Positions 2-31,025 of a DNA stretch of 55,595 nucleotides are shown here, in pieces. A program made the position numbers and the translations under genes. Origin of the DNA: a virus (Duplodnaviria; Caudoviricetes); the IMG/VR virus record IMGVR_UViG_3300042860_000924, positions 1 to 55,595 of that record. One strand, written 5' to 3'. How positions within the stretch are numbered: position 1 is the stretch's first letter; each line of letters begins with the position of its first letter. The notes under the pieces are model-generated. The model saw only the letters and a program-made list of their open reading frames with translations, did no database searches and was not told the origin of the DNA.

Positions 2-3000
2 ATCAACTTCACTACCCTTAGCTTTCATATATTGTTTCCACCAAGCAGGCGCTATAACTTCAGCTATACGACCATCCATAGTAGAGTTATCTGATACCAT
101 ATTTAATCTAGTAGGAATTAACATCCTATCTGTATTAAGAGTATCAATAAGTTCTTTCTCACTATCAGATAATGCGGTATACTCCATAGTCATATCTTTA
201 TGACTTTCCCAGTGAGTATATGAGTTATTATTTAAGTAATAAGAATTTACTTTTAACTTTAAAACTTCCTTAACATGATAGGGTAATAATTTAAAAGCAT
301 CAAAAGATTTCTTCTCACTTTCTGTTAAATCATTAAATAACTTAACCTGACCACCAATTCTAAATACTGAAACTCCACGATCAGCTTGTAATACTAATTT
401 ATTACCACTACCTACAATAGACTTTACAGAGTTATTAGCAGCACCACTCATTAAGCTTATCTCAACCCTATTACGTAATGCTGGGAAGTTTAAGCTAATC
501 AAGTAATTACCTCTGCCATCTTTAGCACGAATAAACTCCTCAAACCTTTCATAACCAGCCATACCTGATACAGCTTCAGCTAATACATTTCTAACTTTAT
601 CTTCGTTAATCTCAAACTTATTACCTACATACTTACCTAACTTTCTTAAGTAAGCATTAAAGTTAGTACGCATTATCAAGGCATCAATATCATATACCAT
701 CTTAGTAGCTTCAGTATTTAACTTATTAACGTTTAAGAAATAAGTTAACTGACTAAAGTTAGTTACATCACCCTCAGAACTTGCTGGGTTAGATTGTATA
801 CTATAATATTTAGAAGGTACATTTATAATACCATTACCATTTTGTCTAGTAGTTGTAGCTATGTGATCTGATATAGACTCGCCATTCTTTAATAAACGAG
901 CAGGAGCTCCTACTTTGAATGCTGAACTATGATGAAACTCCATAATGTTATTGTCTTCCATATCTTTACGGAGATCAGCTAACTCAGGAAACCTAGCACA
1001 TAAACTATCTGATAACTCAATACCAGAGTTTTTACTAAATCTAGTAACACCATACTTATCAATAAAGTACAGTACAGGTTTTAAAACTCCCTTAATACCA
1101 TACTCATATCCATATCCTTTCTCAAGCTCCTCTTTCCACTTAGGTAAGTAGTACATCTGAGCATCAGTCTTATCTATCTGTAAGCCATATAAACCATTAT
1201 AAGCTTTAGCTACATCTGTATAAATATTAAATACAGCATGCTGATCTGATGCTACAATGATATTAAAGTTATCAACCATACCATTACCAGATTTAGAAGT
1301 ATCTACCTTTGGTGAATCACCAGGAGATATTCCTCCACTAGCTCTCTTAACTTGTGTAGTAGGATTAGCATACAAAGATCTATCAGACATTTGAAACTGA
1401 TTCAAGAAGTGACCATTAACATAGTTCTGTTTAAATGCCTCAGCTATAATGATATATAAATTCAAATTATATTCTCTATCAATTTCAGGAGAGTATTTAG
1501 AACTAGCATTATACTTATAGTTCTTATTGAATATCTTAGTTAGACTATCAATCTTAGCATCATCTAATAAACCTACTCTTTCTAAGTAACTTATAAAGCT
1601 CTTAGCCTCGTAAGGTTCAATATAATTCTTATCACCAAGACCACGCTTTAACTTAGCTACTAAAGCATTATTGTTTACAATACGCTCATAAAATTTATAA
1701 GCTCTAGTATCAAGATCATCAATTACTTTATCAACTACTCTTTCTAAAGACTCCTGATCTAGTACTTTATTATCAGCTAAGTAAGTAAATCCACCCTTTA
1801 ACTTACCAGTCCACACATACTTATATGTACCATTTTCAAGTACTTGTACTTTCAAAGGTATACCTTTTATAAATATGTTATGATCTTTAGCTAAGGTTTC
1901 ATACCATCTATATCTTTCAACCTGTTGTAATATGGCACTCTTTATATCTTCCCTCATAGTTTTAATATTACTAGCAGGAATTCTAAATGACATATTCTGA
2001 GGTTTGTTAGATGGTGTATATGGTGATTGTATATATGTTGGGTTCTTATCAGACTTTAACATAGTACTGTAGAAACCAAACACTAATGTTCTAACTACCC
2101 AACCACTAATACCCTCATTCTTGTAAGGTGTAGCAGTATCAGCATCTTCAAACATAACGTTATTCTTATAACGTTGTTTTAAAGCTTCTTGTGTAATCAG
2201 TTCTCTAATGACTCTACCTTTAGATCTAAGGAAAGGATTGTATTTATAATACAACTTATATCCAATAGATTCAGGATCAATATGATCTGGTCTTTTAAAT
2301 CCAGTCTCACCAGTCTCATCAAGATTCCTTCTGAACTTCTCAAACATTCTAGTTAAGAAACTACCCTTAACAAATTTATAACTACTTCTGTTCTTAGAAT
2401 CTAAATATCTACTGTTCTCACCAAAGCCTTGAGAGATAGCTAAAGTATCCATAATCTCTTTAATACGATTATTGTTATCGTTAGCTAATGCATCCTCAAT
2501 AGCTTCTAAAGATTCTTTCTTATCTACAAAGCCTATTATATTATTTAATATACCATTTAAAGCATTAATAATTATCTCATTCTGTATAGGAGTTAAGTTA
2601 AAGATTTTAAACTTACCTAATCCTAACATATTAAATACTTTAGAAACAGTTTCTCTATTAGTACTAATCTTATTAGCCTTTACATCAGTAGACTTGTTTA
2701 CAAGTTCTAATAAGCTTTGGGCTTGTCTAATTATAGCTCCTTGGGGATCATCTCTCAATACAGATAGAATACCATCCTCAATAGATAATTTAACAGCTTG
2801 TTCACCACCTAATACAGAATTAGGAATATATCTAGTCTTTAATGTAACTATAGGCTTTTCTCTAGAGTTAGGATCTTCTGCTTCTTCTAATATAACATCT
2901 GTCAATCCCATGTATGGGTGACGTTCTACTAACGAGGATATCCCAGCTTGTATACCAGCACTTAAGTTTCTAGCTTCTTCTCTAGCTAATAATGTAGCAT

Positions 3001-6000
3001 ACATATTAGCCAACTGTTGTTCAGTAAATTTATTAGAAGGAACTAACTGTCCTTGTATATCAAATAACAATGGCTCATCTAAAGCTAATGTCATAGCTAC
3101 TAATCTCTTAATATAATTATTAGCATTAGCATCCTTAACACCATTAGCATCCCTACGAGTAAACTTATAGTCTACACCTTTGATAGTACCAACAACTAAG
3201 TTATTGTTATAATATAAACCACCATCTTTAAAACCACGTTGAGTTATTTTAAGGTTACTTGGTAAGAAGGCTTTTTTGTATCTTAATCTTGATACACCAT
3301 TCTTTACCTCAGTAGTAACCTCACTAGTATATTTATCATTCTCAGCTCTTCTAATTATATCAACTAAGAAGTCATACACTCTACCTACTTTAGGATCTCC
3401 AGAGTCATCTTTCCAACCAAGCTTAGTAGCATTCAAAGACATAGCTTGAATAGCATTCATATCAAAGTTTTCAATACCTTTAAGGAGTTTTAAACTTATA
3501 TAGAATACTGTTCTTCTAGGAATATATTCTTTTAAAAGTACATTACCTTCAGCATCATATTGTTTAATAAACAATGCCGACATTAAGTTTTTAACAGAAG
3601 CAAGTAACTGTGACTCGTAATTTATACGCCAAGACTCTTCGATCTCATCCTTTAAAGAAGGATCATCACCAAATGTCTCGTCAGAATTATCTAAGTTAAT
3701 ACTATCAGTACTTTGTACTAAGTAATCATATACATTATTGTATATCATATTAGCACGTTTAACTTCCTTCTCAGTTATACCGCCAACCAATATCTTTAAC
3801 CATATTGGAGCTTTATCTTTTAAGTTATTAAACTGATCTTTCAAATCCGCATATACAGCAAACTTAGCATCCTCTGGAGTCATAGTAGCTCCATTGTAAT
3901 ATACCTTACCATTAGCCCCAGTTCTAATAGACATTGCTATACCATTAGACTGATCGTTCCTAGGAGAGTCTGGGGATATTTTACTAGCTAATGATTTTAA
4001 TATAGCTACTTGAGCTAAGTTATAATTATCAGCTGAATCCTTGTACTGTCTTTCTGGAGTACCAAACCAAGCATGTATAAGTAATTTATTTAAACCAGTA
4101 CCTTCAACAGCTTCATTAGCAGTCTCATAAGTAAAGTTACCTTTCTGTATACGATCAAAGAAACTTTCAATCTTATCTTGAGCAGATAATTGAATATTAA
4201 ATATACTCTTTATCTTCCTGAAGAAACTATGTAATAGCCTACTAACAAAGTTTGGCTGTCTTAGGTAAGACATAAAGGAGTCTGCTAACCACTCTTCAAT
4301 ATCACGGTTAGTCTTATCCTTTAATAATGGGTTAGCTTGTATAGCTAACTTATATATCTCTTTACGTTGCTCAGCATTAAAGTAAGCATGTGTTACTCTA
4401 TGGAAAGCCTCGTGTCTCAATACATCTATTGAAGCTTCACCTTGAGCATTAGTCATTAAGTAAATAACTCCCTTCTCATATCTACCCCACACATCCTTAC
4501 CAAAGCGTCTAATCATTTCAGCTTTAGATAAGAATAATAATTTATCAGGATCTGAAGCAAAGTCCTTACCAAATATTTCTGATGCTGCTTGTCTAACTAA
4601 ACTAGGTGTAACCCAATTAGTAGGAGTTGTAGTATCACGTACTGTCCAATCAAAACTATCAGTATCATCATCCCAGCTTAAATCAATATCATTACCATCA
4701 GCAGCGAAATCATTAGCAGGTCTAGGATCTTGTGGTACATGAGCTACATCATTAGGGATAGATTGTTCTAAAGCAGCTAGTTCTGCATCATAGTTAACAA
4801 GAATATTTCCTTTAGAGTCCGTAGTAACAGTATAATCTTTACTTAAAGTTTTATATATATTAGGTACCATTACACCTTTTCTCATTTCTGAAAAAGAGTA
4901 TAAACCTTTTACGCCAGAAGGTAAATTTTCTAATATATACTTATATGAATTAGTAGCTATTTTTTTATTTTGATATTCCTTTTTAGTACTTACTTCATAA
5001 ACGTTAATATATTTTTTACCATCTATGTCTATTATATTTCCTTGAAACTTGAATATCGGAACATTTGAGAAAGTACTTTTTTTATCATATACTTTTAATG
5101 TATACTCATCATTTTCAAGAGTAACTTCTGTTGTATAATCATTTTTATTAAAAAATGAAGATATTTCTTGTCTTCTTTTTTCTATATCAGCTTTAGCATC
5201 TGTAGAAACACCACCTTCTAAAGCAGCTAATTCTGCATCATATTTAGCATTAATTTCTAAATATTTTCTTTTTGCTTCAATATTTTCTTCTCTACTATCT
5301 ACATAACCTTTATTAGCTTCTGGATTTGAATACAAACCTTTTTTTCTCCCTTCAATAGTTATATCAGCAATATCAATCCAGTTTTGTAAAGCTTTATCAT
5401 ATCTTGCTGCTACATCAGGTCTATACTTTATTTCATAATCATATCCCCTCACTTCTTTAATTAACTCCTCTTGTCTTCTTCTTTCTATATCAGCTTTTTT
5501 AGATTCTATAGGTTGAGTTTCTTTAATTGGTGGCTTAACATTGTTAATAGTAATACTAGTAGGTTCAATACCCATTAATGAAGTTTCAAAATCATCTATC
5601 AGATCATCTTGAATTCTTTGTTTATATCCTTGTTCAGTTTCAGTAGGAAACCTATTTACAGTTTTAGTATGCATTGGTAATCTTAAACCAAAGCCACTAT
5701 TAACCATACTATCACCATTATTATCAAAAGCATTATCTCCCACTAAAGCATCTAATACTTCTTCAGTGATAGGATCTAATTCCTCAACTACAGTTACTGC
5801 AGATGGTTCGCCTTTAGTAGGTCTATGGCTGTGTATGTAATGAGCCTTAGTGCCATTACCAGGGTTATATAATAAGTTTAATCCTGAGAAATACTTATGA
5901 CCAGTAGCTACACCATCTTTATATTCTTGTTTAGTCTGTCTTAAGTATATTCTTTTATCACCAATGAACACAGATGAGTTAGCCCTAGCTATAGAATCAA

Positions 6001-9000
6001 ATGCTTTAGCTGCAGGACCATGATTACCACGCTCATTAATTAAACCATCAATAACTAACTCTTCAACATATTGTGAAGGATCAATATCCATATTATGGAT
6101 AATACCAGATTCAACTTTAGTACCACCATCTAGTATACGTTTGTAATTACGTTTACCACCATTCTGATCTATAAACTCTTGTGAGTGTATTTCATATACA
6201 GGCATACGCTCTTTACCAGTAGCAAGATCTTTATCTACAGGTATATCAATCTTAATATGTAAGCCTTTAAAGTTATAAACTTTACGCCAAACCTTTAATC
6301 CTTTATTACCCTTCTCTATTAAATAGAATCCTTTTAATGTAGGGTGTGCTGTATAACTATTCTCACCAAGTTTTACTGGACCTTCAACTGCTCTTCTAGA
6401 ACCTTTGTCTCCAGTAATAAAATACTTAGACATGAAATCCTCATCAGTACCCTCATCATTTATAACAGCATTGTTAGGATCATAACCATACTCGTGTAAA
6501 GCTAATGGGTTAAATAATCCAGTACGAATACTCTTAATAAGATTATTATAGGTAGCTATATCAACACCTTTACGTGTAAGCTCTTCTATTACCTTCTTAG
6601 AAATCTCAGACTTAGGATTAAGTAACTTAGAGAATATCTCTGCTTGAGTTCTACCAATAGTCTTACCAGTTGACTTATTAACATAGTCATAACCAGGTAC
6701 AACCTTTAGTCCACCCCAACGTATCTTAGTATCACCATCTAATACAGATAGTATCTTATGAATATCTTTTATGTTATTTAAGAAGCCACGTAACTCATTA
6801 ACAGAAGAATCTAAATTTAAGTTTAATCTTCTAGTAGTTAATGGTACATACAATACTTCTTCTTTACCACTCTTATGAGTAATTTTAATTACTTGGTAAG
6901 GTACACCAGGTCTAACTACACGAGGATTTAATCCTTGTTTAATTATCTCAGCATTATTATATATCTTTAATTCCCAATTGTATTTATCGTCAATAGGATT
7001 AAATGATTCTAAGTTACCACTATCACTATAGTATGTACTCATAATCTTTACATACATAGTATCTAAGAACTCTCTAAAGTCTTTTAAAGGACCCCACTTA
7101 AAGAACTTAGGTGTAGCATTACCAATTTGTCCTACAAGCAATGGAGGATTCTTATCACCCAGATCTGTAGTTAATTTTCCTTCCTTACCCTTGAATTCAG
7201 ACCACTCAATATCATCAGCATCCCTAGTTTGAAACTCAGGGCTAGTAATAGCATCTACAACTTCCTTAGGTAATTTATACTTACCTATTTCATTTATATC
7301 ATCCTTACCTATTACACCAATCAGATACCATGAACCATCAGCTCCCTGAGCAATGATAGCTAGACCAGCTCTGTTGTTAGCCTTATCCCAGTACTTTACA
7401 TATTGTACTTGAGAGCCTGTTGTAATCTTTTTATCCTTATCTTTAATAGAGAAGTATTGTGGATACTTCAAGTTATGAGTATTAATTATAACTTGTGGTT
7501 CCTGCGTATTTTCTATAGGAAAATCTTCAGGCTTATTTAATTCTTCCCTAGCTAAATCAACAGTATCATTATCCTGATCCATATCATCATCAGCTACAAT
7601 ACCCTCATTATCAGGATCTGCAGGCTTAGGATTAGTTGGATTAGCAGAATTAGTTTGTGCTGGATCATTAGCAGCTGGTTTAACTACAGCAGCTTTTAAA
7701 TTAGCATTTAGATTACTGTTAGATATATTATCATATTGTTTTTGTAGCTCACCAACAAAGTTACTAATCTCATCCTTAGTAGGTGCCTTACGTTGTTCAG
7801 CAGCTATTAAAGTTTTATTATCATTAGTAAACTTAGTTGTAGGTGAATGTATAACTACTAAGTTCTTAGCTCTAGATGTAGCTACATACATAGCTTTGTT
7901 AAACATAGCTACGGTACCATCATGTCTAGGAGCTAACTTACCAGTAGGTGTTAGCATAACATATACTTCATCTACAGTATGGCTTTGAGCTTCATGTATC
8001 TCAAGCACATCAACATTAGTTACACCCAAGTCAGCTAACTCTTTAGTTACTTCTTGTACTTCTTTAGCTGAGTTAACAATAACTAATTGATGTCTACCTT
8101 TACCACGATTAGCGATAAGCATATTGTATAAGTCAACTTTACTATTAACTCCAAAGCTACCATTAGCTTTATCTGAAGTTAATGCAGTAGTTACCTTATC
8201 AACAACACTTACCTTATTACGGTATTCTTTCTGTGTTCTAATTATATCAATATCATCAGTACGATATGTAATCGTTAATGGTGACATAAACTCTTTAGAA
8301 GGATATTCACCAATAGGTTGTGCGATAAATGGTGGTATAGTTAAAGTAGATAACTGTGTTGGATCGCCCATCATTACAACCTTTACTGCTGGGTTTATTG
8401 CTTGAGCTTCAAGTATCTTTCTATTAATCTTGTCTAATTGTTCATCAGATAACAACCCAGCCTCATCAATTATAATGATAGGTGAGTCAGCTAGTACTTG
8501 TGAATCCGTATTTAAGAATGTCTCAAGCGGATTAGCATCATTAGGGTCTGATTTACCTAAAGCTATTGCTAAGTTCTTATTAGAAGATTTAGTTGGAGCT
8601 AATGATACTATCTTAGTACTATCAATATTTAATAGCTTAAGTAATAACTTAGTAACAACTTGTGTCTTACCACTACCAGCATAACCAAGTACAACAGCTA
8701 CAGGACCAGTTAATGGATTACCTTTATACCAATTAACTAACTCTCGTAATGTTACAAGTTGTTGTTTGGTTGGTATATATTCTGTGATAGTAGAGAATAA
8801 GTTTACCTCACTCAATAACATATCCTTAGTATTAACTGCAGGATTATTATAATTACCAGGTATGTTCTTAACTACATTTAACATGTAGAAAAGATTACGT
8901 AAGTCAGCTATCTGTTGTGTACTCTCAGTACCATCTTCAGGATTGATTAAAGAATCATCAGAAGCTTTATTTATAATAGTTATATCCTTAGTGTTTATAT

Positions 9001-12000
9001 ACTGACTAATTGGATGTGATATATCCAAGAAGGTACTTCTATAAACAGAAAGTAAATATTGAGTTAAGAATGTTTCAGGATCTTTAGCTAGTAATGCTTT
9101 ATCTAAATGAAAAGGAGTACCATATAAATTTAAATCCTCAAACTTAGTTTTACAATATAAATACAGATCATCAATCTTAGCATTTCTAAAATCAATTAGC
9201 TGATTCCAATATTTAACTGGGTCATTAGGATCTGTCATTGAGCTATAAACAAACTCATTCATAGCTATAGCATAGCTGTGATGTAAGTAATATTTACCAG
9301 TAGCATCTTGTACTAATACACTATCAATGAATATTTTTAAAGCGTCTTTAATAGCATCAGTTAAAGGTAAATTGAATTTTACAACCGCATCTTTATCAGT
9401 ACTAGGTGTATACGTAATACCCATAGGTATTAATGTATTCGTAGTAGCTATGGTATAAGATTCTTCTTGAGCTAATTCCTTATCAGCAAGTCTAGCTCTA
9501 ATAGCTTTTCTAGCGTTAGCTAAGTCTTGTTCAAGTTGCTCAATAGCATTCTTTAACTCCACTGATATCTTTTTATCAGGATTAGTATATAATTGTTTCT
9601 CTTCTATTAATACTTCCTTAAGCCATTTAAGTTTCTTTTCTAAAGCAGCTATTACAGAATCATCTAAGTAATCACTATCAGTATTAGCTTTATCAACTTC
9701 ACCAACCATTTCTTTTAAGAAACGATCCCATACGAATGTGATTTCTTTATCTACCTTTGAAGTGGATATACCTTTAGGTTCTCTAATTAAATTAGCTTCT
9801 TGTAACCTATCTTGTAGCTTTAACGCATCAGTATACTCTTCACGTAAAGCTTTAAGCTTCTGATAGTAATCAGGATCTTCAATATAAGCACTATCCATTA
9901 AATCGTTTAACTCATCAATGGTAGTTATCTTATTCTTATCCCCAAGAGAATCTTCAACCTCTGAAGCTTTATTAAATACTTCTGAAGCTTTTAATCCTAT
10001 ACGTTTTACTATCTCATCATTCTGCTCTTTAGTTATAGGAGCTTTAACTTGTTCAGCATATGCTAATATCTCCTGAGGTAGTACCTCAAGATCTAACATA
10101 CGTTGTACGTTACTTCTTTTATCAGTGTCTCTAAGCAATGAGGTTTCTTCGAGATCTTCTAAGAACTCGATATATTCCTTCTCACCTTTAACACTATTAT
10201 CCATACCAACCATGTTAGAATTCTTAACATATTGGTCTCCATACTTATAAGACAAACCAGACTTCTGAGCTTCAGTACCTAATCTAGCTAGCTTATTATT
10301 CTCTCTAGTTTCTTTACTGAATTCTCCTGAAGCTATACGCTCATTCTCTTTTAAGAGTCTAGCTATAGCTCTCTCTTTAAGTATAATTGGAATATCAAGA
10401 TCATCATAGATCTCATTAAGATTTAAATTCTTAGCCTTTTCAGGATCTAATAATGAATCAAATAACTTTTTTCTTTTACTTAGTAATTTAGTTCTAGCCT
10501 CATTATCAGTAGGCTCATCTATGATAGCTCTGTAAGGATTAATCTCATCATTCTTAAGTGAGAATAAATCAGCTATCTGCTCAGTATACTCACCAATCAT
10601 TAAGCTATTCTTAATAGCTCTCTTACGATCATCTTTACTAATACCTCTAAAGTCATACTTCTCAATAAGATTGAAAATATATTGTGTATCATCTATCTTA
10701 TTAAACTCTGCCTTAGCTTTCTTAAATCTTAATACTTCTTTCTCAGCATCTGCTGGGGTAATATTACTACCTTCGATTTTAGATAATGATCTAATAGAAT
10801 CTATGAAGTAATCCTCTTTATCATTATCAATATACTTAGCATAAGTGTCATACTTAAATCTTAAGTACTCACCATTAGCTTGCTCTTTAGCAGCTCTACC
10901 TAAATACGATTTAGCTTTAGCATATCCATAGTGATCGCTAATAATACTAGCAGCTTGTGGTAAAGTCATCATAGGACCAGCAGCAAGAGCACCAGCATTT
11001 ACAGCTGATATAAACTCGCTGTTAGTATACAATGAAGAGTTACCATTACCAAAGATAGCCTTCTCTACTTCAAATCTATCACTTGCTAACTGGGAAGCTT
11101 GACTAAGTAAACCTAAGAAGCTATCATCTTTATAGTTAGTAGTATCCTTTAATCCTGTTGTGTCCTTACCTAATACCTTATCTAAATATTGTCTAGTGAA
11201 TAACCATTGACTACCCTCCTCGTTCATTTCCATATTGGTATTCAAGGTCAAGGCACCAATCTTTAATCCAGTACGCATCCAACGATTAGTACCCAAAGCT
11301 ATGTTACCTACCTTAGTAAAAGGTGTAACAGCAAGTATAGATTGTAATACATCACCAAACATTAATCCCATGTTCTTAGTTCGCAAACCTTCTAATTCTT
11401 CATGGGCTTTCATTGAAAGTTTATTTAACTCTCTTTGGTGTTTAGGATCTTCAAGCTCAGCCATATCCTGGATATTATTCTTGAGCATGTAATCTTGGGT
11501 AAGTAAAGAAACAGCTTCCTCGTATGCATCATTCTCTTCAGCCTCAGTCTCTTGTACACGAGCTTTCCATTGTACAGCCAGATCACCAGCTAACACAGCT
11601 AACGTAGCACCAGCAGCTACAGCATTACCTATACCAGGAGCCATAGAACCAGCAGCTTCAGCTGTAACTAATCTAGCTATAGCAGCCTTAATAAGTTTAG
11701 GAGTAAATGCAGCAGCAACTGTAGCACCTAAAGTACCAAAGGAGCTACCAAAGTCTTTACCAAACTCATACTTAAAAGCATTGAATGCTGAAGTGTTAGC
11801 ATCACGCTGGAACATATCAGAGAGTAATTTAAACTCTAAATCTATATCCTTATTTCTACGAGCTATATCTTCTTCACCCCCAGCAATTAAACCAGTTAAA
11901 CCAGAACCGTATTTAATATCCTCTTCTAGCTCCATAGTTTTCGTAGCAGTTTCCTGGTCAAACTCTTGAGCTTTTTGTTTAGCTCTACTTAACTCATCTT

Positions 12001-12343
12001 GTAATGAAGCAGCTGTTACTAAATCATTATTCTCAGAAGCCTTCTGCATACGATCCTGTAAATCATAAATCTCCTCCATCTGCTTCATCTTGTTGTAGTT
12101 AAGATTACGCAGTTGAGTTTTTGATGATCCAGTATTTATACTAGCCATAGCATTTAAGAATGTATTGAGAGTATTATCCTGTGACCAGCTATCTTGAATT
12201 AAACCTGGGTCTGTAGTAAATCCTTCAGGTGAAGGTCCTGAATAATACGGTACATTGTTAGTTGCTTGCATTGCATCAAGTGTATTATTTACACCTGTCT
12301 GCGTTTGTCCTGTTAATAAGTATTTTAATACTTCTGGTCTCAT
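2..12343 (-). CDS. Giant virion/ejection polyprotein, >4,114 aa, truncated by the window edge; SF1 helicase + zincin + probable virion RNA polymerase
   Basis: ATG at 12343 overlaps the TGA of the upstream ORF (ATGA) and begins MRPEVLKYLLTGQ. The same frame is open in every segment I translated and at the window edge (...APAWWKQYMKAKGSEVD). Its absence from the ORF track implies no in-window stop. Motifs: GYAGSGKT (8663-8686), IIIDEAG, GDPTQL, YVATSRAK (~7865-7888), HEAFH (4400-4414), and KRASGGISPG / TDAQMYYLP (~1140-1350), which resemble crAss-like RNAP beta-like segments. It lies after the muzzle and cargo genes, as crAss vRNAP genes do. Confidence 0.85.
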   Translation of the reverse strand, partial: MRPEVLKYLLTGQTQTGVNNTLDAMQATNNVPYYSGPSPEGFTTDPGLIQDSWSQDNTLNTFLNAMASINTGSSKTQLRNLNYNKMKQMEEIYDLQDRMQKASENNDLVTAASLQDELSRAKQKAQEFDQETATKTMELEEDIKYGSGLTGLIAGGEEDIARRNKDIDLEFKLLSDMFQRDANTSAFNAFKYEFGKDFGSSFGTLGATVAAAFTPKLIKAAIARLVTAEAAGSMAPGIGNAVAAGATLAVLAGDLAVQWKARVQETEAEENDAYEEAVSLLTQDYMLKNNIQDMAELEDPKHQRELNKLSMKAHEELEGLRTKNMGLMFGDVLQSILAVTPFTKVGNIALGTNRWMRTGLKIGALTLNTNMEMNEEGSQWLFTRQYLDKVLGKDTTGLKDTTNYKDDSFLGLLSQASQLASDRFEVEKAIFGNGNSSLYTNSEFISAVNAGALAAGPMMTLPQAASIISDHYGYAKAKSYLGRAAKEQANGEYLRFKYDTYAKYIDNDKEDYFIDSIRSLSKIEGSNITPADAEKEVLRFKKAKAEFNKIDDTQYIFNLIEKYDFRGISKDDRKRAIKNSLMIGEYTEQIADLFSLKNDEINPYRAIIDEPTDNEARTKLLSKRKKLFDSLLDPEKAKNLNLNEIYDDLDIPIILKERAIARLLKENERIASGEFSKETRENNKLARLGTEAQKSGLSYKYGDQYVKNSNMVGMDNSVKGEKEYIEFLEDLEETSLLRDTDKRSNVQRMLDLEVLPQEILAYAEQVKAPITKEQNDEIVKRIGLKASEVFNKASEVEDSLGDKNKITTIDELNDLMDSAYIEDPDYYQKLKALREEYTDALKLQDRLQEANLIREPKGISTSKVDKEITFVWDRFLKEMVGEVDKANTDSDYLDDSVIAALEKKLKWLKEVLIEEKQLYTNPDKKISVELKNAIEQLEQDLANARKAIRARLADKELAQEESYTIATTNTLIPMGITYTPSTDKDAVVKFNLPLTDAIKDALKIFIDSVLVQDATGKYYLHHSYAIAMNEFVYSSMTDPNDPVKYWNQLIDFRNAKIDDLYLYCKTKFEDLNLYGTPFHLDKALLAKDPETFLTQYLLSVYRSTFLDISHPISQYINTKDITIINKASDDSLINPEDGTESTQQIADLRNLFYMLNVVKNIPGNYNNPAVNTKDMLLSEVNLFSTITEYIPTKQQLVTLRELVNWYKGNPLTGPVAVVLGYAGSGKTQVVTKLLLKLLNIDSTKIVSLAPTKSSNKNLAIALGKSDPNDANPLETFLNTDSQVLADSPIIIIDEAGLLSDEQLDKINRKILEAQAINPAVKVVMMGDPTQLSTLTIPPFIAQPIGEYPSKEFMSPLTITYRTDDIDIIRTQKEYRNKVSVVDKVTTALTSDKANGSFGVNSKVDLYNMLIANRGKGRHQLVIVNSAKEVQEVTKELADLGVTNVDVLEIHEAQSHTVDEVYVMLTPTGKLAPRHDGTVAMFNKAMYVATSRAKNLVVIHSPTTKFTNDNKTLIAAEQRKAPTKDEISNFVGELQKQYDNISNSNLNANLKAAVVKPAANDPAQTNSANPTNPKPADPDNEGIVADDDMDQDNDTVDLAREELNKPEDFPIENTQEPQVIINTHNLKYPQYFSIKDKDKKITTGSQVQYVKYWDKANNRAGLAIIAQGADGSWYLIGVIGKDDINEIGKYKLPKEVVDAITSPEFQTRDADDIEWSEFKGKEGKLTTDLGDKNPPLLVGQIGNATPKFFKWGPLKDFREFLDTMYVKIMSTYYSDSGNLESFNPIDDKYNWELKIYNNAEIIKQGLNPRVVRPGVPYQVIKITHKSGKEEVLYVPLTTRRLNLNLDSSVNELRGFLNNIKDIHKILSVLDGDTKIRWGGLKVVPGYDYVNKSTGKTIGRTQAEIFSKLLNPKSEISKKVIEELTRKGVDIATYNNLIKSIRTGLFNPLALHEYGYDPNNAVINDEGTDEDFMSKYFITGDKGSRRAVEGPVKLGENSYTAHPTLKGFYLIEKGNKGLKVWRKVYNFKGLHIKIDIPVDKDLATGKERMPVYEIHSQEFIDQNGGKRNYKRILDGGTKVESGIIHNMDIDPSQYVEELVIDGLINERGNHGPAAKAFDSIARANSSVFIGDKRIYLRQTKQEYKDGVATGHKYFSGLNLLYNPGNGTKAHYIHSHRPTKGEPSAVTVVEELDPITEEVLDALVGDNAFDNNGDSMVNSGFGLRLPMHTKTVNRFPTETEQGYKQRIQDDLIDDFETSLMGIEPTSITINNVKPPIKETQPIESKKADIERRRQEELIKEVRGYDYEIKYRPDVAARYDKALQNWIDIADITIEGRKKGLYSNPEANKGYVDSREENIEAKRKYLEINAKYDAELAALEGGVSTDAKADIEKRRQEISSFFNKNDYTTEVTLENDEYTLKVYDKKSTFSNVPIFKFQGNIIDIDGKKYINVYEVSTKKEYQNKKIATNSYKYILENLPSGVKGLYSFSEMRKGVMVPNIYKTLSKDYTVTTDSKGNILVNYDAELAALEQSIPNDVAHVPQDPRPANDFAADGNDIDLSWDDDTDSFDWTVRDTTTPTNWVTPSLVRQAASEIFGKDFASDPDKLLFLSKAEMIRRFGKDVWGRYEKGVIYLMTNAQGEASIDVLRHEAFHRVTHAYFNAEQRKEIYKLAIQANPLLKDKTNRDIEEWLADSFMSYLRQPNFVSRLLHSFFRKIKSIFNIQLSAQDKIESFFDRIQKGNFTYETANEAVEGTGLNKLLIHAWFGTPERQYKDSADNYNLAQVAILKSLASKISPDSPRNDQSNGIAMSIRTGANGKVYYNGATMTPEDAKFAVYADLKDQFNNLKDKAPIWLKILVGGITEKEVKRANMIYNNVYDYLVQSTDSINLDNSDETFGDDPSLKDEIEESWRINYESQLLASVKNLMSALFIKQYDAEGNVLLKEYIPRRTVFYISLKLLKGIENFDMNAIQAMSLNATKLGWKDDSGDPKVGRVYDFLVDIIRRAENDKYTSEVTTEVKNGVSRLRYKKAFLPSNLKITQRGFKDGGLYYNNNLVVGTIKGVDYKFTRRDANGVKDANANNYIKRLVAMTLALDEPLLFDIQGQLVPSNKFTEQQLANMYATLLAREEARNLSAGIQAGISSLVERHPYMGLTDVILEEAEDPNSREKPIVTLKTRYIPNSVLGGEQAVKLSIEDGILSVLRDDPQGAIIRQAQSLLELVNKSTDVKANKISTNRETVSKVFNMLGLGKFKIFNLTPIQNEIIINALNGILNNIIGFVDKKESLEAIEDALANDNNNRIKEIMDTLAISQGFGENSRYLDSKNRSSYKFVKGSFLTRMFEKFRRNLDETGETGFKRPDHIDPESIGYKLYYKYNPFLRSKGRVIRELITQEALKQRYKNNVMFEDADTATPYKNEGISGWVVRTLVFGFYSTMLKSDKNPTYIQSPYTPSNKPQNMSFRIPASNIKTMREDIKSAILQQVERYRWYETLAKDHNIFIKGIPLKVQVLENGTYKYVWTGKLKGGFTYLADNKVLDQESLERVVDKVIDDLDTRAYKFYERIVNNNALVAKLKRGLGDKNYIEPYEAKSFISYLERVGLLDDAKIDSLTKIFNKNYKYNASSKYSPEIDREYNLNLYIIIAEAFKQNYVNGHFLNQFQMSDRSLYANPTTQVKRASGGISPGDSPKVDTSKSGNGMVDNFNIIVASDQHAVFNIYTDVAKAYNGLYGLQIDKTDAQMYYLPKWKEELEKGYGYEYGIKGVLKPVLYFIDKYGVTRFSKNSGIELSDSLCARFPELADLRKDMEDNNIMEFHHSSAFKVGAPARLLKNGESISDHIATTTRQNGNGIINVPSKYYSIQSNPASSEGDVTNFSQLTYFLNVNKLNTEATKMVYDIDALIMRTNFNAYLRKLGKYVGNKFEINEDKVRNVLAEAVSGMAGYERFEEFIRAKDGRGNYLISLNFPALRNRVEISLMSGAANNSVKSIVGSGNKLVLQADRGVSVFRIGGQVKLFNDLTESEKKSFDAFKLLPYHVKEVLKLKVNSYYLNNNSYTHWESHKDMTMEYTALSDSEKELIDTLNTDRMLIPTRLNMVSDNSTMDGRIAEVIAPAWWKQYMKAKGSEVD
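4766..5497 (-). repeat. Two pairs of in-frame direct repeats bounding two cassettes in the giant ORF
   Basis: 29-nt repeat at 5469-5497 and 5166-5194 (28/29 identical; KADIE(R/K)RRQE). 27-nt repeat at 5216-5242 and 4766-4792 (26/27 identical; YDAELAALE). Confidence 0.95.
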
Positions 12344-12912
12344 TTATTGAATGTGTTTGCGAATTGTGTTAGGTAATCTAATACAGTAGAGTTCTTATAA
12401 ACTTTACCATACCGTTTTAAATAAGCTTGATTTAAAGCTTGTTGTGCTGTACTATGTGCTTCAATGTCTCCTAAGTTATTACGCTTAGCGCTTTGATAAG
12501 CTTGTAGGTATAAGTTAGTATCAGGTAATCCTAAGAAGTGTTCCATAGCCATATAGACTTCATCACTAGCTCCAGGAAACTTAGATTTTAATGTTGGTAC
12601 ATTCTTACTATATGAATCGAATAAGTAATCCATATATTGTTCCTGAGCTACATTATTTTTCAAATAATCTTCCTCCTTCTTTACACCAGTTATTTTAGCT
12701 ATAGCATCAGAATGCGCTTTCCATAATACTTGGTATTTTCCACGAGCACTACTGTTAGGATTAACTGCAGCATAGTTATTATTAGTTCCTTCTGGAACTG
12801 TTAGGGCAGACTTGAACTTATCTCTTATCGTATTCCCCCCAGTGGATTGCCCTGCTGTCCCTGAGGTTGAGTGGGGTTTCCAGATATACCATCTACAATT
12901 TCTGCAGGCCAT
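12340..12912 (-). CDS. Lysozyme-like/lytic transglycosylase domain (virion-associated muramidase); start uncertain, possibly a frameshift extension of 12825..15113
   Basis: PEGTNNNYAAVNPNSSARGKYQ...AQEQYMDY...HFLG fits the lysozyme-like fold pattern (E...NY.A.N..S.A.GKYQ). The listed N-terminus (MACRNCRWYIW) lies inside the previous gene and looks non-native. Confidence 0.65.
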   Translation of the reverse strand: MACRNCRWYIWKPHSTSGTAGQSTGGNTIRDKFKSALTVPEGTNNNYAAVNPNSSARGKYQVLWKAHSDAIAKITGVKKEEDYLKNNVAQEQYMDYLFDSYSKNVPTLKSKFPGASDEVYMAMEHFLGLPDTNLYLQAYQSAKRNNLGDIEAHSTAQQALNQAYLKRYGKVYKNSTVLDYLTQFANTFNK

Positions 12913-15113
12913 CCAGAGGCTATACCCTCACGTATTAATATATTCAATCTAGCAAGTCCTTTGTAATCATTAGACTCTTTGTATTGCTTTAACAAAGGTA
13001 ACAATACATTAGATACTGCTTTAGGAGTACGCTTGTTATTCAATACATTCTGCATAGTTAAACTAATTGCTGTAGCAGCACCTTTAGTTTTAGCTATGTT
13101 GTCAGCTACCCTAGTCTCATTTAACTGCATAAGTACTTCTGGGTATTGACTATTCCAAGCATCCTGATTAGCATCATATGTAGAACCAACACCAGCAGCT
13201 TGCCTATTAAAGCTTTGAGCTTTTATAGGAGTATTAATCTGTTCAGGTAAATAGTATTGTAAACTAAATGAACTACCACCCCTAGTTCCAGGATTAACTT
13301 TCATTATCTTACTACCTATATCTTCCCAGAATTCTCCAAAGGAACCGTAAGTACCACTATCTAATGGTGACATATCAAACATATCTGGAGCTACTCTTTC
13401 CATGTAGTTTACAAAGTTTTCTTCTGCAGATAATACTTCTTTACCATCATCTGTAACTGTTGGTCCGAATGTAATATAACCCTTAATGAATCTCTTATCA
13501 TCTACACTAACTACATTCTTTTCTCCTGTAGCTACTCTAAATGGAGCTTCACCAGAATTCATTATCTTATAACCCATCTTGCTTCTAACTTCCTGAATCA
13601 TTTCTTCTTCAGTCATCTTAGCAGATTTATCTAATTGAGCTTTTAATAACTTATTATTTAAAGCTACAACATCACTAGGCTTAGTAATAACTTCACCCAT
13701 CTCTAATGCAGCATTTTGTATAGCTAACCATTCAGGCGATGATGTATCAAGATTAGCTACACTAGCAGCTAACTCATCTGTAGCAGCTTTATATTCCTTA
13801 GTCATGTTTACATAGAATTCTGTAAAGTTTTTATCAGTCATACCAGAAGGTAAGTCTAATATAGAACTAAAGAAGTTACGCTTCTCTACACTATAGTTAT
13901 TATCATCGAATAAGTGGAATGCTCTATTTTGTATTCTAGCTTGTTTAAGTTTCTCACTTAAAGTATACATAGTTTTTATAGGGGCACTTAAACCAAGCTT
14001 AGCCATATTCTCTTCTTGTACAGTATTGTAATTAGCTTCTTTAACTTCTTGCTCATTAGTTAATCCCCTATTACCAAATTGTGTTATACCTTGATCTGTA
14101 GCATCAACAATTACTGTACCATTAGCTTGTAATTGTAACCCATTGAATGCAGCAAAGTCTTTAGGAGTAACTTGGTCAGAAGCAACATAAGCATTAACAG
14201 GAGCTTGCATTTGTGGTTTATCAGTTTTACCATCACTAGAACTAGCTAATCCTTTAGCTATGTTAACCTTACTATTTATTTGCTCAGCACCTGTAAGCAT
14301 AATCATAGCTTTAGCTTGTTCGTAGGGAGTTAACTCATACATAGCTTTACCATCAAAGTAAGTCTTACCACCTAATTGCGATAGTACATCATCAGGTACA
14401 GTACCTAATAGTTCCCTATCACCACTGATAAAATCATTAAAGTTTTCAGACTGCATATAGTTTACAGCACCAGTATTAGCTTTCTCTTCTAAGTCAGCTA
14501 TAGTCTTACCGAACTCTGTAGTGAATGCTCCAGTTGTTGGGTCTATCATAGCTTGTGGATTAATAGCGCTACCAACCCATTTGTTTAATAACTTACCTTC
14601 TATATGTGTACCCCAGTTTTGAGTAAACTTATAATTCATATTAGCTTCCCAAGGATCTTGACTACGTGAGTCTACATCTTGTGGATTAAATTGTAACCAA
14701 GGTAACAACTTATTATCAGCCCTGAAGTCAGGGTCCATCATCTTAGATGCTAAAGCTGTATTGTTAGCTTTGTATAAATCAGCTAAGCTAGTCATACGAT
14801 CTAACAGAGGTTTACTCTCTGATACAAAGTTATTTATAGCCATAGAGTATTTAGTAGGATTCATATCAGGATCAGTAATTAACTGATTCTGTAACTCCTT
14901 ATACTTAGATCTAATAGCTGGTAAATTACCTAACTCATCTTGACTTTGAGGTACAGTTCTAACATTCTTAAATATGTCAGATACTTCCTGATCTGATTCT
15001 GCCCTAGCTTTATCCCAACGTTGTTGTGTCATATCAGCTGCTTTTAATATCAGCTCATATGGTAATACACCTGGGTTCCATTCTGGTGCTTTATCGTATC
15101 TATTTATTCCCAT
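12825..15113 (-). CDS. Internal virion/ejection (cargo) protein
   Basis: 762 aa, largely helical, located between the muzzle/cargo genes and the giant RNAP gene, as in crAss-like phages. Confidence 0.6.
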   Translation of the reverse strand: MGINRYDKAPEWNPGVLPYELILKAADMTQQRWDKARAESDQEVSDIFKNVRTVPQSQDELGNLPAIRSKYKELQNQLITDPDMNPTKYSMAINNFVSESKPLLDRMTSLADLYKANNTALASKMMDPDFRADNKLLPWLQFNPQDVDSRSQDPWEANMNYKFTQNWGTHIEGKLLNKWVGSAINPQAMIDPTTGAFTTEFGKTIADLEEKANTGAVNYMQSENFNDFISGDRELLGTVPDDVLSQLGGKTYFDGKAMYELTPYEQAKAMIMLTGAEQINSKVNIAKGLASSSDGKTDKPQMQAPVNAYVASDQVTPKDFAAFNGLQLQANGTVIVDATDQGITQFGNRGLTNEQEVKEANYNTVQEENMAKLGLSAPIKTMYTLSEKLKQARIQNRAFHLFDDNNYSVEKRNFFSSILDLPSGMTDKNFTEFYVNMTKEYKAATDELAASVANLDTSSPEWLAIQNAALEMGEVITKPSDVVALNNKLLKAQLDKSAKMTEEEMIQEVRSKMGYKIMNSGEAPFRVATGEKNVVSVDDKRFIKGYITFGPTVTDDGKEVLSAEENFVNYMERVAPDMFDMSPLDSGTYGSFGEFWEDIGSKIMKVNPGTRGGSSFSLQYYLPEQINTPIKAQSFNRQAAGVGSTYDANQDAWNSQYPEVLMQLNETRVADNIAKTKGAATAISLTMQNVLNNKRTPKAVSNVLLPLLKQYKESNDYKGLARLNILIREGIASGWPAEIVDGISGNPTQPQGQQGNPLGGIR

Positions 15114-24732: not shown

Positions 24733-25809
24733 TTATAGTTCCATTGGAACTACTATAGGTAATTTTCCATTTAATACTACTCCGCATGATACAATTGATT
24801 TTTTACTAAAAGCTTTAGCGTAATCAAAACTGTATTGCGCATCATCAATACCACATCCTACTTGCATTGCGAATATCCGATCTATCTCAGAGACGTTCCA
24901 GGTGATAGACGCTGTAGTATGTAAGTGCCCACTAACCACAGATAATCTGCGATTTAAAGCTCTATTAAAAGCGGCCCTATCACCTGAAGTCCCAGTACCA
25001 TGAGTATAGATAACACCTTGAATCTGGTGTTCGAGATCGAATTTCCAATTAGGTACTTCAAGTACCTCTGCCAATCCTTTGATCCAACGCTTAGACATAC
25101 CTGAGGTAAATGCCTTACGTTGAATTATCTGATCGTGGTTTCCTAAGCAAACATGTGCTTCAGGGAATGTATAGTACCAAGACTTTAATTTACTGATAGC
25201 TAAAGCTAGTTCATCACCAGCTGAATGACCATCAGGATTAGTCTCATGATATGATGAGTAGTTATTATCAACTACATCACCAATATGTACTACTGTACCA
25301 CAATTAAATCTTTCTTGAACTTCTCTGCAGAACTTTAAATACCCTTTCCTTTCAAAAGGTATGTGGGTATCTCCAATGACCAATACGTTATTCTTATCGC
25401 CCGTTAGAAATGGTTCAATCTTCTCTTCCTGCAGATCAACTTTAATAGCATCATTTTGCTCATCAAATACACCCATCTGAAGTAGTTGATTGAGGAGTTG
25501 TAAGTTCAACTCTCTATCCTCTTGAGCATTACCAGTTCTAAACTTAACTACTGGTATTGGTGTATTTGAATCTAATCTTACTTTTACAACTTTTCTGTTG
25601 CTGCTAATAAAGTTATTATAATTTGAACTACCTCTATCTAAGAGTTCTCCTCTTTTAAAGTAGTCCTTTACTTCTTTAATAATATCTCGAACATCTTCGT
25701 ATGATAAGCTAAATCTATCAGCTAGTTTAGCGTAAGAAGTCTTTAAATGTCCTGGGTGGCTGATTAGCCAATCCCTCAATACTTGTTGTTTTGTTTCTCT
25801 ATTTCTCAT
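24733..25809 (-). CDS. Calcineurin-like metallophosphoesterase with N-terminal extension
   Basis: All five metallophosphoesterase motifs are present: GDTH, GDVVD, GNHD, THG, GHLH. Confidence 0.9.
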   Translation of the reverse strand: MRNRETKQQVLRDWLISHPGHLKTSYAKLADRFSLSYEDVRDIIKEVKDYFKRGELLDRGSSNYNNFISSNRKVVKVRLDSNTPIPVVKFRTGNAQEDRELNLQLLNQLLQMGVFDEQNDAIKVDLQEEKIEPFLTGDKNNVLVIGDTHIPFERKGYLKFCREVQERFNCGTVVHIGDVVDNNYSSYHETNPDGHSAGDELALAISKLKSWYYTFPEAHVCLGNHDQIIQRKAFTSGMSKRWIKGLAEVLEVPNWKFDLEHQIQGVIYTHGTGTSGDRAAFNRALNRRLSVVSGHLHTTASITWNVSEIDRIFAMQVGCGIDDAQYSFDYAKAFSKKSIVSCGVVLNGKLPIVVPMEL

Positions 25810-29316: not shown

Positions 29317-30687
29317 TTAAATATTTCTACCAGCAAGTCTGATAGTAGGAGTTTGTCCGTTAGTATTCCAACTCATTACACCTTGATTAACAGGGGGAGT
29401 AGTAATCCACTTTGTAGCATCTTCAGGATTAAATGTAGCTGGTGGGTTAACCCAGAACCAACGACCTGCACCATTGATGTTATTAAATTTAGTATTAGTA
29501 GTTAAGAATGGTACATTGTGTACAATCATCTTAGCATAAGCTGCTGAATCAAAGCTGATTAAGGTACAATCATATTGTGAGAACACAGTATCAATATTAG
29601 CATAACCATCTTTTAATCTTACGTGTACAGCTGCAACTGAAGGTACTTGTTCAATATGACATCCTTTAACAGTAAATTCTTTTACAACTGTAGAGCTATT
29701 ATCATCAAAGTATATTTCGTACTGAGGACCAGCCTGAACACCTTCAAAGATACAATGGTCAATAACTAACCCAGATACAGCTGTAGCCTTAATAGCACCA
29801 AACTGACCTGCAGAATGTCTGAACTTACAATCCCTAATTATACTATGATTAGACTGGGAAGCACTATTAGAACCACCAGTAAATCTAGCATAATCTAATT
29901 CAATACTGATATTGTTTTCCCAGAAGTAACATTGGTCAATTATAGTACCCATTGTCCAACCACCTTTGAAAGCACTTCTAAAGTTAGAGAATCTACATCC
30001 TTCAATACGAGCACCATAGTTAGCTTCCAGATCTATACAGTCAGCACCACGATTAGATGTAGATATAAACTCTACATTACGTATTCTAAACTGCATATCA
30101 ATACCAGAGTTAGCTGCTGTTAAGCTAGCATACTTACGGCTAAATATAGTTGTAGCAGATGTGATTGAGAATCCATGACCCTCAAGTTCTAACATCTTAG
30201 TATAGTTAGGATTTATAGTAACTGGTTGTGTTAAAGTAATATTATTAGCTAAGTGTATAGATCTAATATTAGCGTCAGCGAAAGCTGCTCTAAATTCTGC
30301 TTCATTAGTTACCCAACGAGTATTACCAACATTACCTGTACCACCAGTACCTGTACCAGGAATACCCTGTGGACCCTGAGGTCCTTGTGCTCCAGTATCT
30401 CCTTTGTCACCCTTTTCACCAGTATCACCTTTAAGTCCCTGAATTCCAGGATCACCTGGATCACCTTTAGGACCTTGTAAGCCCATTGGACCAGTACTAC
30501 CTGTAGGACCAGGCACACCAAATATACCACTTATTTCTTCCCAAGAGGTACCGTTATGGAAATAGGATTTCATTGTAGGTACTACTATAATTACATCACG
30601 ATTTGAAACAAAACCAGATGGTTTCTGTAGTGGGAGTTCTGTGGATTCAAATGTGATCCTAGCTAAATTTAAGTCTTTGTTTAACAT
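29317..30687 (-). CDS. Collagen-linked beta-helix tail fibre/spike
   Basis: Gly-X-Y run followed by a beta-helix paralogous to 27832..29313. Confidence 0.75.
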
Positions 30688-31025
30688 TATATATCTTTTA
30701 AAAGTTGAGAACTGTCAAGGCAAGAAGAGCACTGGCATATACCACGTACACCTTCAATTACCCATTGTAGATCTTCAGAAGATAAACATTCATCTTCCTC
30801 AGTTTGTGTGTAGATAACATCACCATTTACTTCATATTCATAGTCTAATGGTCTGTATCTTTTTAAAGCATCCATGTAATATTCTAACATAGTTGCTTGT
30901 AGTTTTAAAGTAGTAGCACATGGATTACCAGATCTCTCAGCTATAATAATATTATAGGTTAATACTGGTAAGCAACATTGTGCTTTTAATCTAATTTCTT
31001 GTATATCCTCGTATGTATAAGTCAT
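30687..31025 (-). CDS. Small Cys-rich tail hub/fibre-docking protein
   Basis: QCC and ICQCSSC motifs; small helical protein flanking the fibre genes. Confidence 0.45.

Follow-up and report, generated by a model that had tools for sequence, protein, structure and literature searches.

The stretch of DNA analysed here, called the window below, is the whole 55,595 bp of the IMG/VR virus record IMGVR_UViG_3300042860_000924, which is estimated to be 58% complete. Inside one giant open reading frame (ORF) of the window, two neighbouring segments each consist of a payload placed between the same two short motifs, an N bracket (..KKADIERRRQEEL) and a C bracket (..INAKYDAELAALE). The two units belong to a family of in-frame cassettes that is spread across viruses, and we consider it probable that its brackets serve both as homology arms and as a helical clasp. 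The units of this family follow a strict N-then-C order and hold diverse payloads; identical payloads occur in unrelated genes, and different payloads occur in genes that are nearly identical. An empty allele exists as well, the ends of homology between loci pile up on the brackets, and the brackets share codons in excess of expectation.

An earlier note on this DNA had described two tandem units of the form KADIE(R/K)RRQE-payload-YDAELAALE, and both are indeed present on the minus strand inside one ORF (lengths are given in nucleotides, nt, or amino acids, aa; HMM denotes the hidden Markov model of a bracket):

2-12343, minus strand: giant ORF of 4114 aa, open at the window start, corresponding to the first 4114 aa of the 6550-aa protein P0030.
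5456-5518, minus strand: N bracket of cassette 1 (..IESKKADIERRRQEEL), HMM match at aa 2276-2296 with score 32, predicted helix; its core, KADIERRRQE (5497-5468, aa 2283-2292), is the N end of the cassette.
5467-5243, minus strand: payload 1 (aa 2293-2367), 75 aa, predicted to be helical, of no known family.
5213-5260, minus strand: C bracket of cassette 1 (..EINAKYDAELAALEG), HMM match at aa 2362-2377 with score 28; its core, YDAELAALE (5242-5216, aa 2368-2376), is the C end of the cassette.
5215-5195, minus strand: GGVSTDA (aa 2377-2383), the junction between the cassettes.
5150-5212, minus strand: N bracket of cassette 2 (VSTDAKADIEKRRQE..), HMM match at aa 2378-2398 with score 25, predicted helix (model residues 110-129); its core, KADIEKRRQE (5194-5165, aa 2384-2393), is the N end of the cassette.
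5164-4793, minus strand: payload 2 (aa 2394-2517), 124 aa, with a predicted GNAT fold.
4763-4810, minus strand: C bracket of cassette 2 (..LVNYDAELAALEQ), HMM match at aa 2512-2527 with score 22; its core, YDAELAALE (4792-4766, aa 2518-2526), is the C end of the cassette.

The ends of the two cassettes are nearly identical in DNA, as had been noticed before, with 28 of 29 nt shared at the N end (5166-5194 versus 5469-5497) and 26 of 27 nt at the C end (4766-4792 versus 5216-5242). The payloads between them are unrelated: the best blastp match between the two covers 12 residues (E 0.011), and they match different proteins among the 1.84 billion searched. They are not homologous halves of a tandem duplication. 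The claim that the payloads are richer in A/T than the host gene holds for payload 2, whose G+C content (GC) of 0.234 compares with an ORF mean of 0.327 and lies in the lowest 0.5% of equal-sized windows, and is weak for payload 1 (GC 0.28, lowest 9%). A Pfam search of the cassette region at E<=0.1 found no family, the polyvalent-protein (LPD) families included. For cassette 1 the ESM Atlas returned unnamed clusters only, at 0.78-0.80, which is under the level where matches mean anything. Bracketed homologues of payload 1 are found in P0006 (50%), P0008 (54%) and P0025 (64-69%).

The bracket pair is widespread among viruses. When IMG/VR was scanned with a degenerate DNA pattern for YDAELAALE, 114 stretches matched, each of them in frame within a long ORF (the median is 1845 aa even though the locus ends truncate the ORFs, and 90 of the 114 reach at least 1000 aa). 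By our own rough estimate, the pattern probability times an assumed collection size, chance would provide only about 1-2 matches. INAK precedes most of the 114 matches, and the pattern made no demand for it; this, together with the excess over chance, indicates that the motif is more than a chance string. In about half of the stretches the strict pattern ADIE(R/K)RRQE is found 36-295 aa upstream of the C motif. HMMs built from 50 (N) and 84 (C) distinct bracket sequences gave the following orders in the 114 ORFs: NC in 75, NCNC in 6, NNC in 3, C only in 26, CC in 2, NCC in 1, and CNCNCNC in 1. In the alignments the consensus is ..DIEAKKADIERRRQEEL for the N bracket and ..KINAKYDAELAALE for the C bracket, and conservation falls sharply on either side of both. 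Both window units share the features that define the family, namely both brackets in N-then-C order and in frame in a long viral ORF. The search of viral metagenomes for the two end motifs, which the earlier note had proposed, yielded 94 N..C units whose payloads are 17-266 aa long (median 84.5) and fall into 73 clusters.

A profile of 15 short units, used on protein clusters and covering proteins of 143-2000 aa, recovered at least 538 clusters at E<=1e-3 among 7999 candidates scored, and nearly all of these bracket-bearing clusters are unnamed or called hypothetical. Applied to 596 Gb of cellular genomes, the DNA pattern for YDAELAALE matched 83 stretches. The bracket signature is present in three of these, all contigs of metagenome-assembled genomes with low GC; two further low-GC contigs contain long ORFs with a similar C end, and the remaining 78 are unrelated proteins, mostly from high-GC genomes. 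Neither Pfam nor PHROG has a family over the brackets, and the sequences in the PDB gave no match to them. The units are adjoined by linkers rich in Pro, Thr and Glu. The longest array that we saw is on the IMG/VR contig L094 (324-1943, plus strand), where a lone C bracket is followed by at least three consecutive N..C units.

The abundance of the brackets is also visible in metagenome contigs. In lake metagenome runs the depth of contigs at the brackets is about 3-fold to more than 10-fold that of neighbouring bins, and in the wastewater run X17 the summed contig depth at the N bracket (window 5463-5539) reaches 542, compared with 15 for the flanks. The X17 wastewater community must harbour genes with brackets in very large numbers. 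Many contigs in the lake and wastewater runs (four runs) diverge at the bracket edges.

The second cassette of the window is found, unchanged, in a gene that is otherwise unrelated to the giant ORF:

4766-5210, minus strand: 445-nt stretch, 100% identical to positions 6132-6576 of locus L002 and in frame there in an otherwise unrelated ORF of 2583 aa.

Comparison of the 12.5-kb L002 locus with the whole window (blastn, tblastx) detected no similarity beyond the 445 nt, and the terminases of the two records are only 31% identical. The identity of 445 nt despite this divergence suggests very recent traffic within lake-water viral communities. The GC of cassette 2 (0.249) is nearer to that of the L002 gene (0.278) than to that of the window gene (0.327), which weakly suggests a direction for the transfer. 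Payload 2 is also bracketed in P0003 and P0005, and this cassette is their only likeness to the window protein; it is bracketed again in P0004 and P0023, relatives of the L002 protein. The GGVSTDA junction, too, links two cassettes in P0004, a protein unrelated to that of the window. Altogether, 14 pairs of units share a payload and have unrelated sequence on both flanks.

The converse situation, different cassettes in the same gene, is represented by 23 pairs of units in which both flanks are related and the payloads are not, with the reservation that payloads in four of the 23 pairs are below 25 aa, too short for testing. In loci L012 and L091 the flanks share 95-98% nt identity around payloads of 25 and 96 aa, and homology ends inside the N bracket after the IERKR codons and restarts at INAKYD. 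P0004 and P0023 (89-92% identical) differ by exactly one unit of 132 aa, joined by GGVSTDA and reaching from one ..AALE to the next. For the window protein, relatives were obtained from protein clusters. One of them, P0022 (6303 aa), is 97.6% identical to it over aa 1-2292 and 2530-4114 and lacks both cassettes, so the relatives do not all carry the same two inserts. A 7528-nt contig from the wastewater run X17, which covers 4000-4756 and 5538-6300 with 32 differences, lacks both cassettes as well:

4757-5537, minus strand: polymorphic segment of 781 nt, in place of which the empty allele (X17 contig) has 40 other letters.

Translated by hand, these 40 letters read SKPVDNPNTTPTD, which is the same in P0022. 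The difference between the alleles is in frame, since 741 nt make 247 codons, the difference between 6550 and 6303.

The boundaries of homology point to the brackets themselves. When high-scoring segment pairs of at least 150 nt and at least 85% identity were compared over all loci, 44 of 75 distinct internal ends lay within a bracket or 15 nt of it, compared with 1.7 expected. The DNA of the brackets is conserved beyond the peptide level. Between units without detectable similarity in flanks or payload, codon identity in the N bracket KADIExRRQE is 0.888 (562 of 595 pairs, 35 units), whereas 0.60 with a standard deviation (sd) of 0.024 is expected from each ORF's own codon usage; for the C bracket INAKYDAELAALE the corresponding values are 0.776 (1922 of 2016 pairs, 64 units) and 0.523 (sd 0.013). 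Codon choice depends on the position: the Ala codons of the C bracket are GCT, GCA, GCT and GCT, and Ile is encoded by ATC in the C bracket and by ATA in the N bracket. Just upstream of YDAEL, six codons lay outside the selection by the scan, and in these codons differences are fewest at codon position 2, intermediate at position 1 and most frequent at position 3 (0.111, 0.195 and 0.272). The suggestion that the conserved ends are anchors for the in-frame gain, loss and exchange of cassettes finds strong comparative support in the shared cassettes, the empty allele, the breakpoints and the codon identity.

Known domains are recognised in a few of the payloads. In P0115 an ART-PolyVal domain (692-801) lies between an N bracket at 655-675 and a C bracket at 807-822, and in P0054 an AAA_33/Zeta_toxin-like kinase (1372-1508) lies between brackets at 1349-1369 and 1526-1541. 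Pfam (E<=0.001) left 82 of 84 distinct units without a match and gave two weak hits, and PHROG matched 6 of the 84, two of these as 'virion RNA polymerase' (PHROG 2206). Outside the brackets, the carrier proteins include a NUDIX domain (P0037), ddrB-ParB (P0085) and cpYpsA (P0076). Readings by eye of the L005/L014 payload as ADP-ribosyltransferase-like and of L115 as ParB-like found no Pfam confirmation at E<=0.001 and were dropped.

Payload 2 is predicted to have the fold of a GNAT acetyltransferase. Its homologues are found in giant proteins and also as stand-alone proteins of 111-151 aa. With an alignment of 11 sequences, AlphaFold2 modelled payload 2 with a predicted local distance difference test score (pLDDT) above 90, and Foldseek retrieved 24 PDB matches at E<=1e-3 for this model; among the matches listed are the GNAT chains of the ICL2 C-terminal domain, Rv1916 (target-normalised template modelling score 0.55), AtaT, TacT, Naa60 and AAC. 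Pfam found no GNAT match in payload 2. The acetyl-CoA loop of GNAT enzymes has the motif Q/R-x-x-G-x-G/A. The loop of the window's payload reads QNKKIA compared with RGKGIG or QGKGIA in distant homologues, which makes acetyltransferase activity uncertain. At window position 4954, within payload 2, three lake-water runs (X3, X12 and X14) have a contig that matches on one side only and then, in all three runs, goes on into one common unrelated sequence; the contig either represents a variant with part of payload 2 in common or marks a breakpoint within it.

Payload 1 has its counterpart in P0025, a distant homologue of the window protein (3841 aa), at the equivalent place (residues ~1227-1400). 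The C bracket is split there, with ~45 other residues between INAKYDAE and ..AKLAALG, which may reflect an insertion nested in the bracket or the decay of the bracket.

Both structural models that were made show the brackets as helices. In the model of the window's cassettes the helices comprise residues 8-26, 70-106, 110-129 and 249-255, and the minimal unit of L007 (56 aa) is modelled with pLDDT 91 and a predicted template modelling score (pTM) of 0.71 as two helices, 2-20 and 39-55. The prediction of helices at both brackets is consistent with the helical hairpin that the conserved ends had been supposed to form, in which their antiparallel pairing is putative. A prediction of the N-bracket half and the C-bracket half as a complex (score 0.11, mark 0.32) speaks neither way. 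The fold search with the minimal-unit model gave nothing significant (best E 5.3), and its weak top neighbours were TraM, the Rad50 coiled coil and the LSD1-CoREST complex, all of them antiparallel helical hairpins, which is a hint at most.

The mechanism that we propose is the following. Each unit would consist of an N bracket, an independently folding payload domain and a C bracket, and would reside, alone or in a short tandem array, in the flexible linkers of giant virion proteins of the 'cargo' or polyvalent type in crAss-like and other phages. The bracket DNA would provide portable homology arms of ~30-45 nt that are common to many phages. Crossovers in the N and C brackets of co-infecting phages would replace the payload, unequal crossover between like brackets would add or remove a unit, and recombination at brackets could move a whole unit into another bracket-bearing gene, with the reading frame kept in every such exchange. 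The two bracket helices would probably pack together and bring the ends of the payload side by side, so that any domain could fit into the linker. The carrier protein may then be packaged and ejected partly unfolded, as are the Crassvirales cargo proteins (PMC10136315, part of the text).

Several observations weigh against this reading or limit it. The evidence for homologous recombination as the agent of exchange is comparative and not experimental. The loci were found through the exact C motif and centred on it, which favours well-conserved brackets and may have inflated the enrichment of breakpoints. The pattern of differences over the three codon positions indicates that ordinary protein-level selection also acts on the bracket, whose peptide may have a function of its own. 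The packing of the N and C helices against each other is inferred from a model that is confident and compact. With 82 of the 84 units lacking a Pfam match, the term effector is unproven for most payloads. Finally, the empty allele at the window locus did not arise by excision from bracket to bracket, because the 781 nt that were swapped for unrelated letters include 13 and 4 flanking codons. The cassettes of the window were gained or lost via the flanks or through an unknown event. Precise deletions between repeats, for which the earlier note had proposed to check the reads, did not appear: the single-cassette products expected from recombination between the window's own repeats were not seen in the contigs of the four runs, although such Logan contigs cannot show absence.

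The gene that carries the cassettes belongs to a phage with a crAss-like affinity. The large genes of the window are all on the minus strand and encode a terminase, a portal, a major head protein, collagen-like tail fibres and virion structural proteins; the giant ORF comes after these virion genes, at the distal end of the module, and runs off the window. The nearest relatives of the terminase (~37% identity) are from crAss-like phages of Bacteroides, Flavobacterium and Cellulophaga, and the window stretch is mostly found in lake-water metagenomes (24 rows, 23 studies). Searches of the region against 50,697 GenBank phage records (blastn and tblastn) gave no match, and when metagenomes were scanned with the protein of the upstream flank, none of the 88 pattern matches was a relative. 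Residues 1-4114 of P0030 are identical to the product of the window ORF, and we can therefore also describe what lies beyond the window: a PD-(D/E)XK nuclease and the second of two HExxH motifs that were recognised by eye. Searches of the giant protein against solved structures (sequence and profile searches against the PDB) gave no match. The other features of the window are these:

4400-4414, minus strand: HEAFH, a zincin-type HExxH motif recognised by eye, with no Pfam match.
7844-8710, minus strand: superfamily 1 (Dda/Pif1-like) helicase domain, matched by Pfam AAA_30 and Viral_helicase1 and by PHROG 325.
12825-12912, minus strand: overlap of 88 nt between the ORFs 12340-12912 and 12825-15113, which suggests that the true start of the 190-aa ORF may be further downstream.
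24733-25809, minus strand: metallo-phosphoesterase gene within the virion structural module (PHROG 221, E 2e-49).
29317-30687 and 31025-32284, minus strand: neighbouring genes that match many tail-fibre PHROGs, including collagen-like minor tail families, via short repeated stretches.

The position of the giant gene after the tail genes, together with the cargo proteins of Crassvirales, suggests that its product may be a component of the virion that enters the host along with the DNA. The payloads may be effectors, and by likeness to the Crassvirales cargo proteins (PMC10136315, part of the text) such effectors could be delivered with the DNA against host defences, as the earlier note had supposed.

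One could assume that the brackets are primarily a peptide signal, either cleavage sites that free the payloads through the protein's own HExxH domain or a head protease, or a packaging or ejection motif, and that recombination at them is a by-product. The motifs are near-invariant and have knife-sharp edges between unrelated sequence, as expected for a short recognition motif; linkers rich in Pro, Thr and Glu stand beside the units, HEAFH is located 118 aa downstream of cassette 2, and the order of differences over codon positions indicates selection on the peptide. Iyer et al. suggest autoproteolysis of polyvalent proteins by their own metallopeptidase domains (PMC5512222, part of the text). 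However, a peptide signal leaves the excess identity at synonymous sites, the position-specific codons and the pile-up of homology ends on the brackets unexplained; the region of HEAFH matches no Pfam peptidase family, and cleavage itself is putative. We therefore consider this explanation unlikely as the primary role of the brackets, and they may have a role as peptide signal, for example as a processing site, alongside their role in recombination.

We find it less likely still that the bracket pair is a small conserved helical domain that tolerates inserts in its loop, with a variety that arose as domains accreted in the ordinary way and entire gene segments were transferred horizontally, and with no special role for the bracket DNA. 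Minimal units with payloads of 17-28 aa do fold confidently as helix-loop-helix, and in the distant homologue P0025 cassette 1 occupies the corresponding position, which is what one would expect of a long-established domain. However, codon identity lies 12-19 sd over expectation between units that are otherwise dissimilar, and near-identical genes differ exactly between the brackets. The counterparts of cassette 1 in the window protein and P0025 are 64% identical, whereas elsewhere the two proteins agree in 29-31% of their residues.

The conserved termini, the variable middle, the in-frame presence and absence among close relatives and the identical copy in an unrelated gene might also be taken as signs of a self-mobile in-frame element, whether intein-like, driven by a homing endonuclease, or similar to a transposon or miniature inverted-repeat transposable element with terminal inverted repeats. 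Inteins have Cys or Ser as the first residue, end with His-Asn followed by Cys, Ser or Thr, and possess a Hint fold. The cassettes have K-A-D as their first residues and A-L-E as their last, with G, Q, E or S next in the protein, so that the intein residues are absent, and among the 84 units no Hint, endonuclease or transposase family was detected. The DNA of the two brackets does not form inverted repeats (the N consensus against the reverse complement of the C consensus scores 7, which was reached by 162 of 1000 shuffles) or direct repeats of each other (62 of 1000 shuffles), and payloads of 17 aa are too short to encode an enzyme. All this makes a self-mobile element very improbable.

An assembly artefact, with chimeric cassettes produced by metagenome assemblers that switched from one genome to another at the repeated brackets, is barely credible: the brackets are 27-45-nt repeats common to many genomes in the same samples and Logan contigs break exactly at them, but the same arrangement is present in separate records (the window and P0030, from NCBI and JGI), L002 and L003 from two metagenomes are identical over the 1701 nt compared, a contig of run X3 spans the flank, cassette 2, the junction and C1 (4442-5245), other genes hold bracketed versions of payload 2 that have diverged (98%, 86% over the matched region, and 71%) and cannot be chimeras of one sequence, and the frame is kept at every junction.

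If the cassettes are homology-driven as we propose, a phage with one unit in a cargo protein could capture an acetyltransferase, an ADP-ribosyltransferase, a kinase or many unknown domains. With somewhat less than even confidence, we further suggest that the virus-wide exchange amounts to a 'protein-level integron' without a dedicated integrase, in which a sequence of ~45 nt would be both a homology arm and half of a helical clasp, and through which a phage might take over domains of unrelated phages that infect the same cell and deliver these, along with its DNA, into the next host. The giant virion proteins of phages, crAss-like ones and others, are largely unannotated, and an ordered bracket pair would give the shuffling of their domains a concrete, testable mechanism. 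The two short motifs also provide a search handle for harvesting payload domains from metagenomes, and for engineering they suggest a way to insert domains in frame into phage cargo proteins.

The cargo proteins and virion RNA polymerase of Crassvirales are similar to the present system in that the window terminase is ~37% identical to crAss-like terminases, the giant gene follows the tail genes, and 2 of the 84 units match PHROG 2206. The window protein itself has no sequence match to solved RNA polymerases or to PHROG 2206, 'virion RNA polymerase'. Beyond the window, at residue 4171 of P0030, the sequence HGSDFDVDSLF is found, and P0025 has GLDFDIDKVY in a collinear stretch of 31% identity. 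DFDVD could be the metal-binding DxDxD motif of a virion RNA polymerase, a lead obtained by eye without support from sequence searches.

Inteins and the Rickettsia palindromic elements share with the cassettes conserved ends and an in-frame presence or absence inside a host gene. The cassettes differ from both in that they have no splicing residues, Hint fold or terminal inverted repeats, and their peptide is retained in the protein, where it forms a folded domain. In polymorphic toxins (the VENN junction of CdiA, PxxxxDPxGL of Rhs) a conserved peptide junction marks the exchange of variable payload domains by recombination; there is one junction, the payload is C-terminal, and an immunity gene follows downstream. 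The payload of a cassette, in contrast, is internal: it has a junction on either side, lacks an immunity gene, and is followed by thousands of further codons in the same frame.

The gp38 adhesins of T-even phages have glycine-rich motifs (GRM) that separate hypervariable segments (Trojet et al. 2011, citing Tetart et al.; PMC3157838, part of the text). The alternation of short conserved motifs with variable segments, and crossovers within the GRM (PMC3157838, part of the text), correspond to the logic proposed here for the brackets, in which crossovers inside short motifs are indicated by comparison (L012/L091; 44 of the 75 ends) and not by crosses. However, the gp38 motifs together build the core of a single small domain, in a receptor binder whose loops are the variable parts (PMC3157838, part of the text), whereas the cassettes hold whole unrelated domains of up to 266 aa, ordered N then C, that move between unrelated genes of distant phages. 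The payloads are separate domains (GNAT, ADP-ribosyltransferase, kinase) in a protein that is not an adhesin, and the brackets are not the core of one receptor-binding domain.

The closest framework for the carrier is provided by the polyvalent proteins of phages and conjugative elements, giant multidomain proteins in which helicase, nuclease, metallopeptidase, ADP-ribosyltransferase, ParB and similar domains are variously combined and which have been suggested to accompany the DNA on its way (Iyer et al. 2017, PMC5512222, part of the text). The protein of the window likewise is a very large single polypeptide (6550 aa in P0030) with several unrelated enzymatic domains, and the bracket-bearing proteins P0115 and P0085 carry the polyvalent families ART-PolyVal and ddrB-ParB. 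In the window protein and P0029, a Pfam search found none of the signature families MPTase, ART-PolyVal, ddrB-ParB or LPD. The part of that paper that we drew on, its supplementary alignments excluded, describes no conserved motif pair that flanks domains and no mechanism of in-frame exchange (PMC5512222). More generally, the motif strings occur in none of the papers searched, and the papers retrieved on polyvalent proteins and on crAss-like variability describe no such brackets in their texts, supplementary files aside. Motif-mediated modular exchange is itself of a known kind; what is new here, compared with these systems, is that it involves complete domains, that the bracket is ordered and has two sides, and that units move from one gene to an unrelated one.

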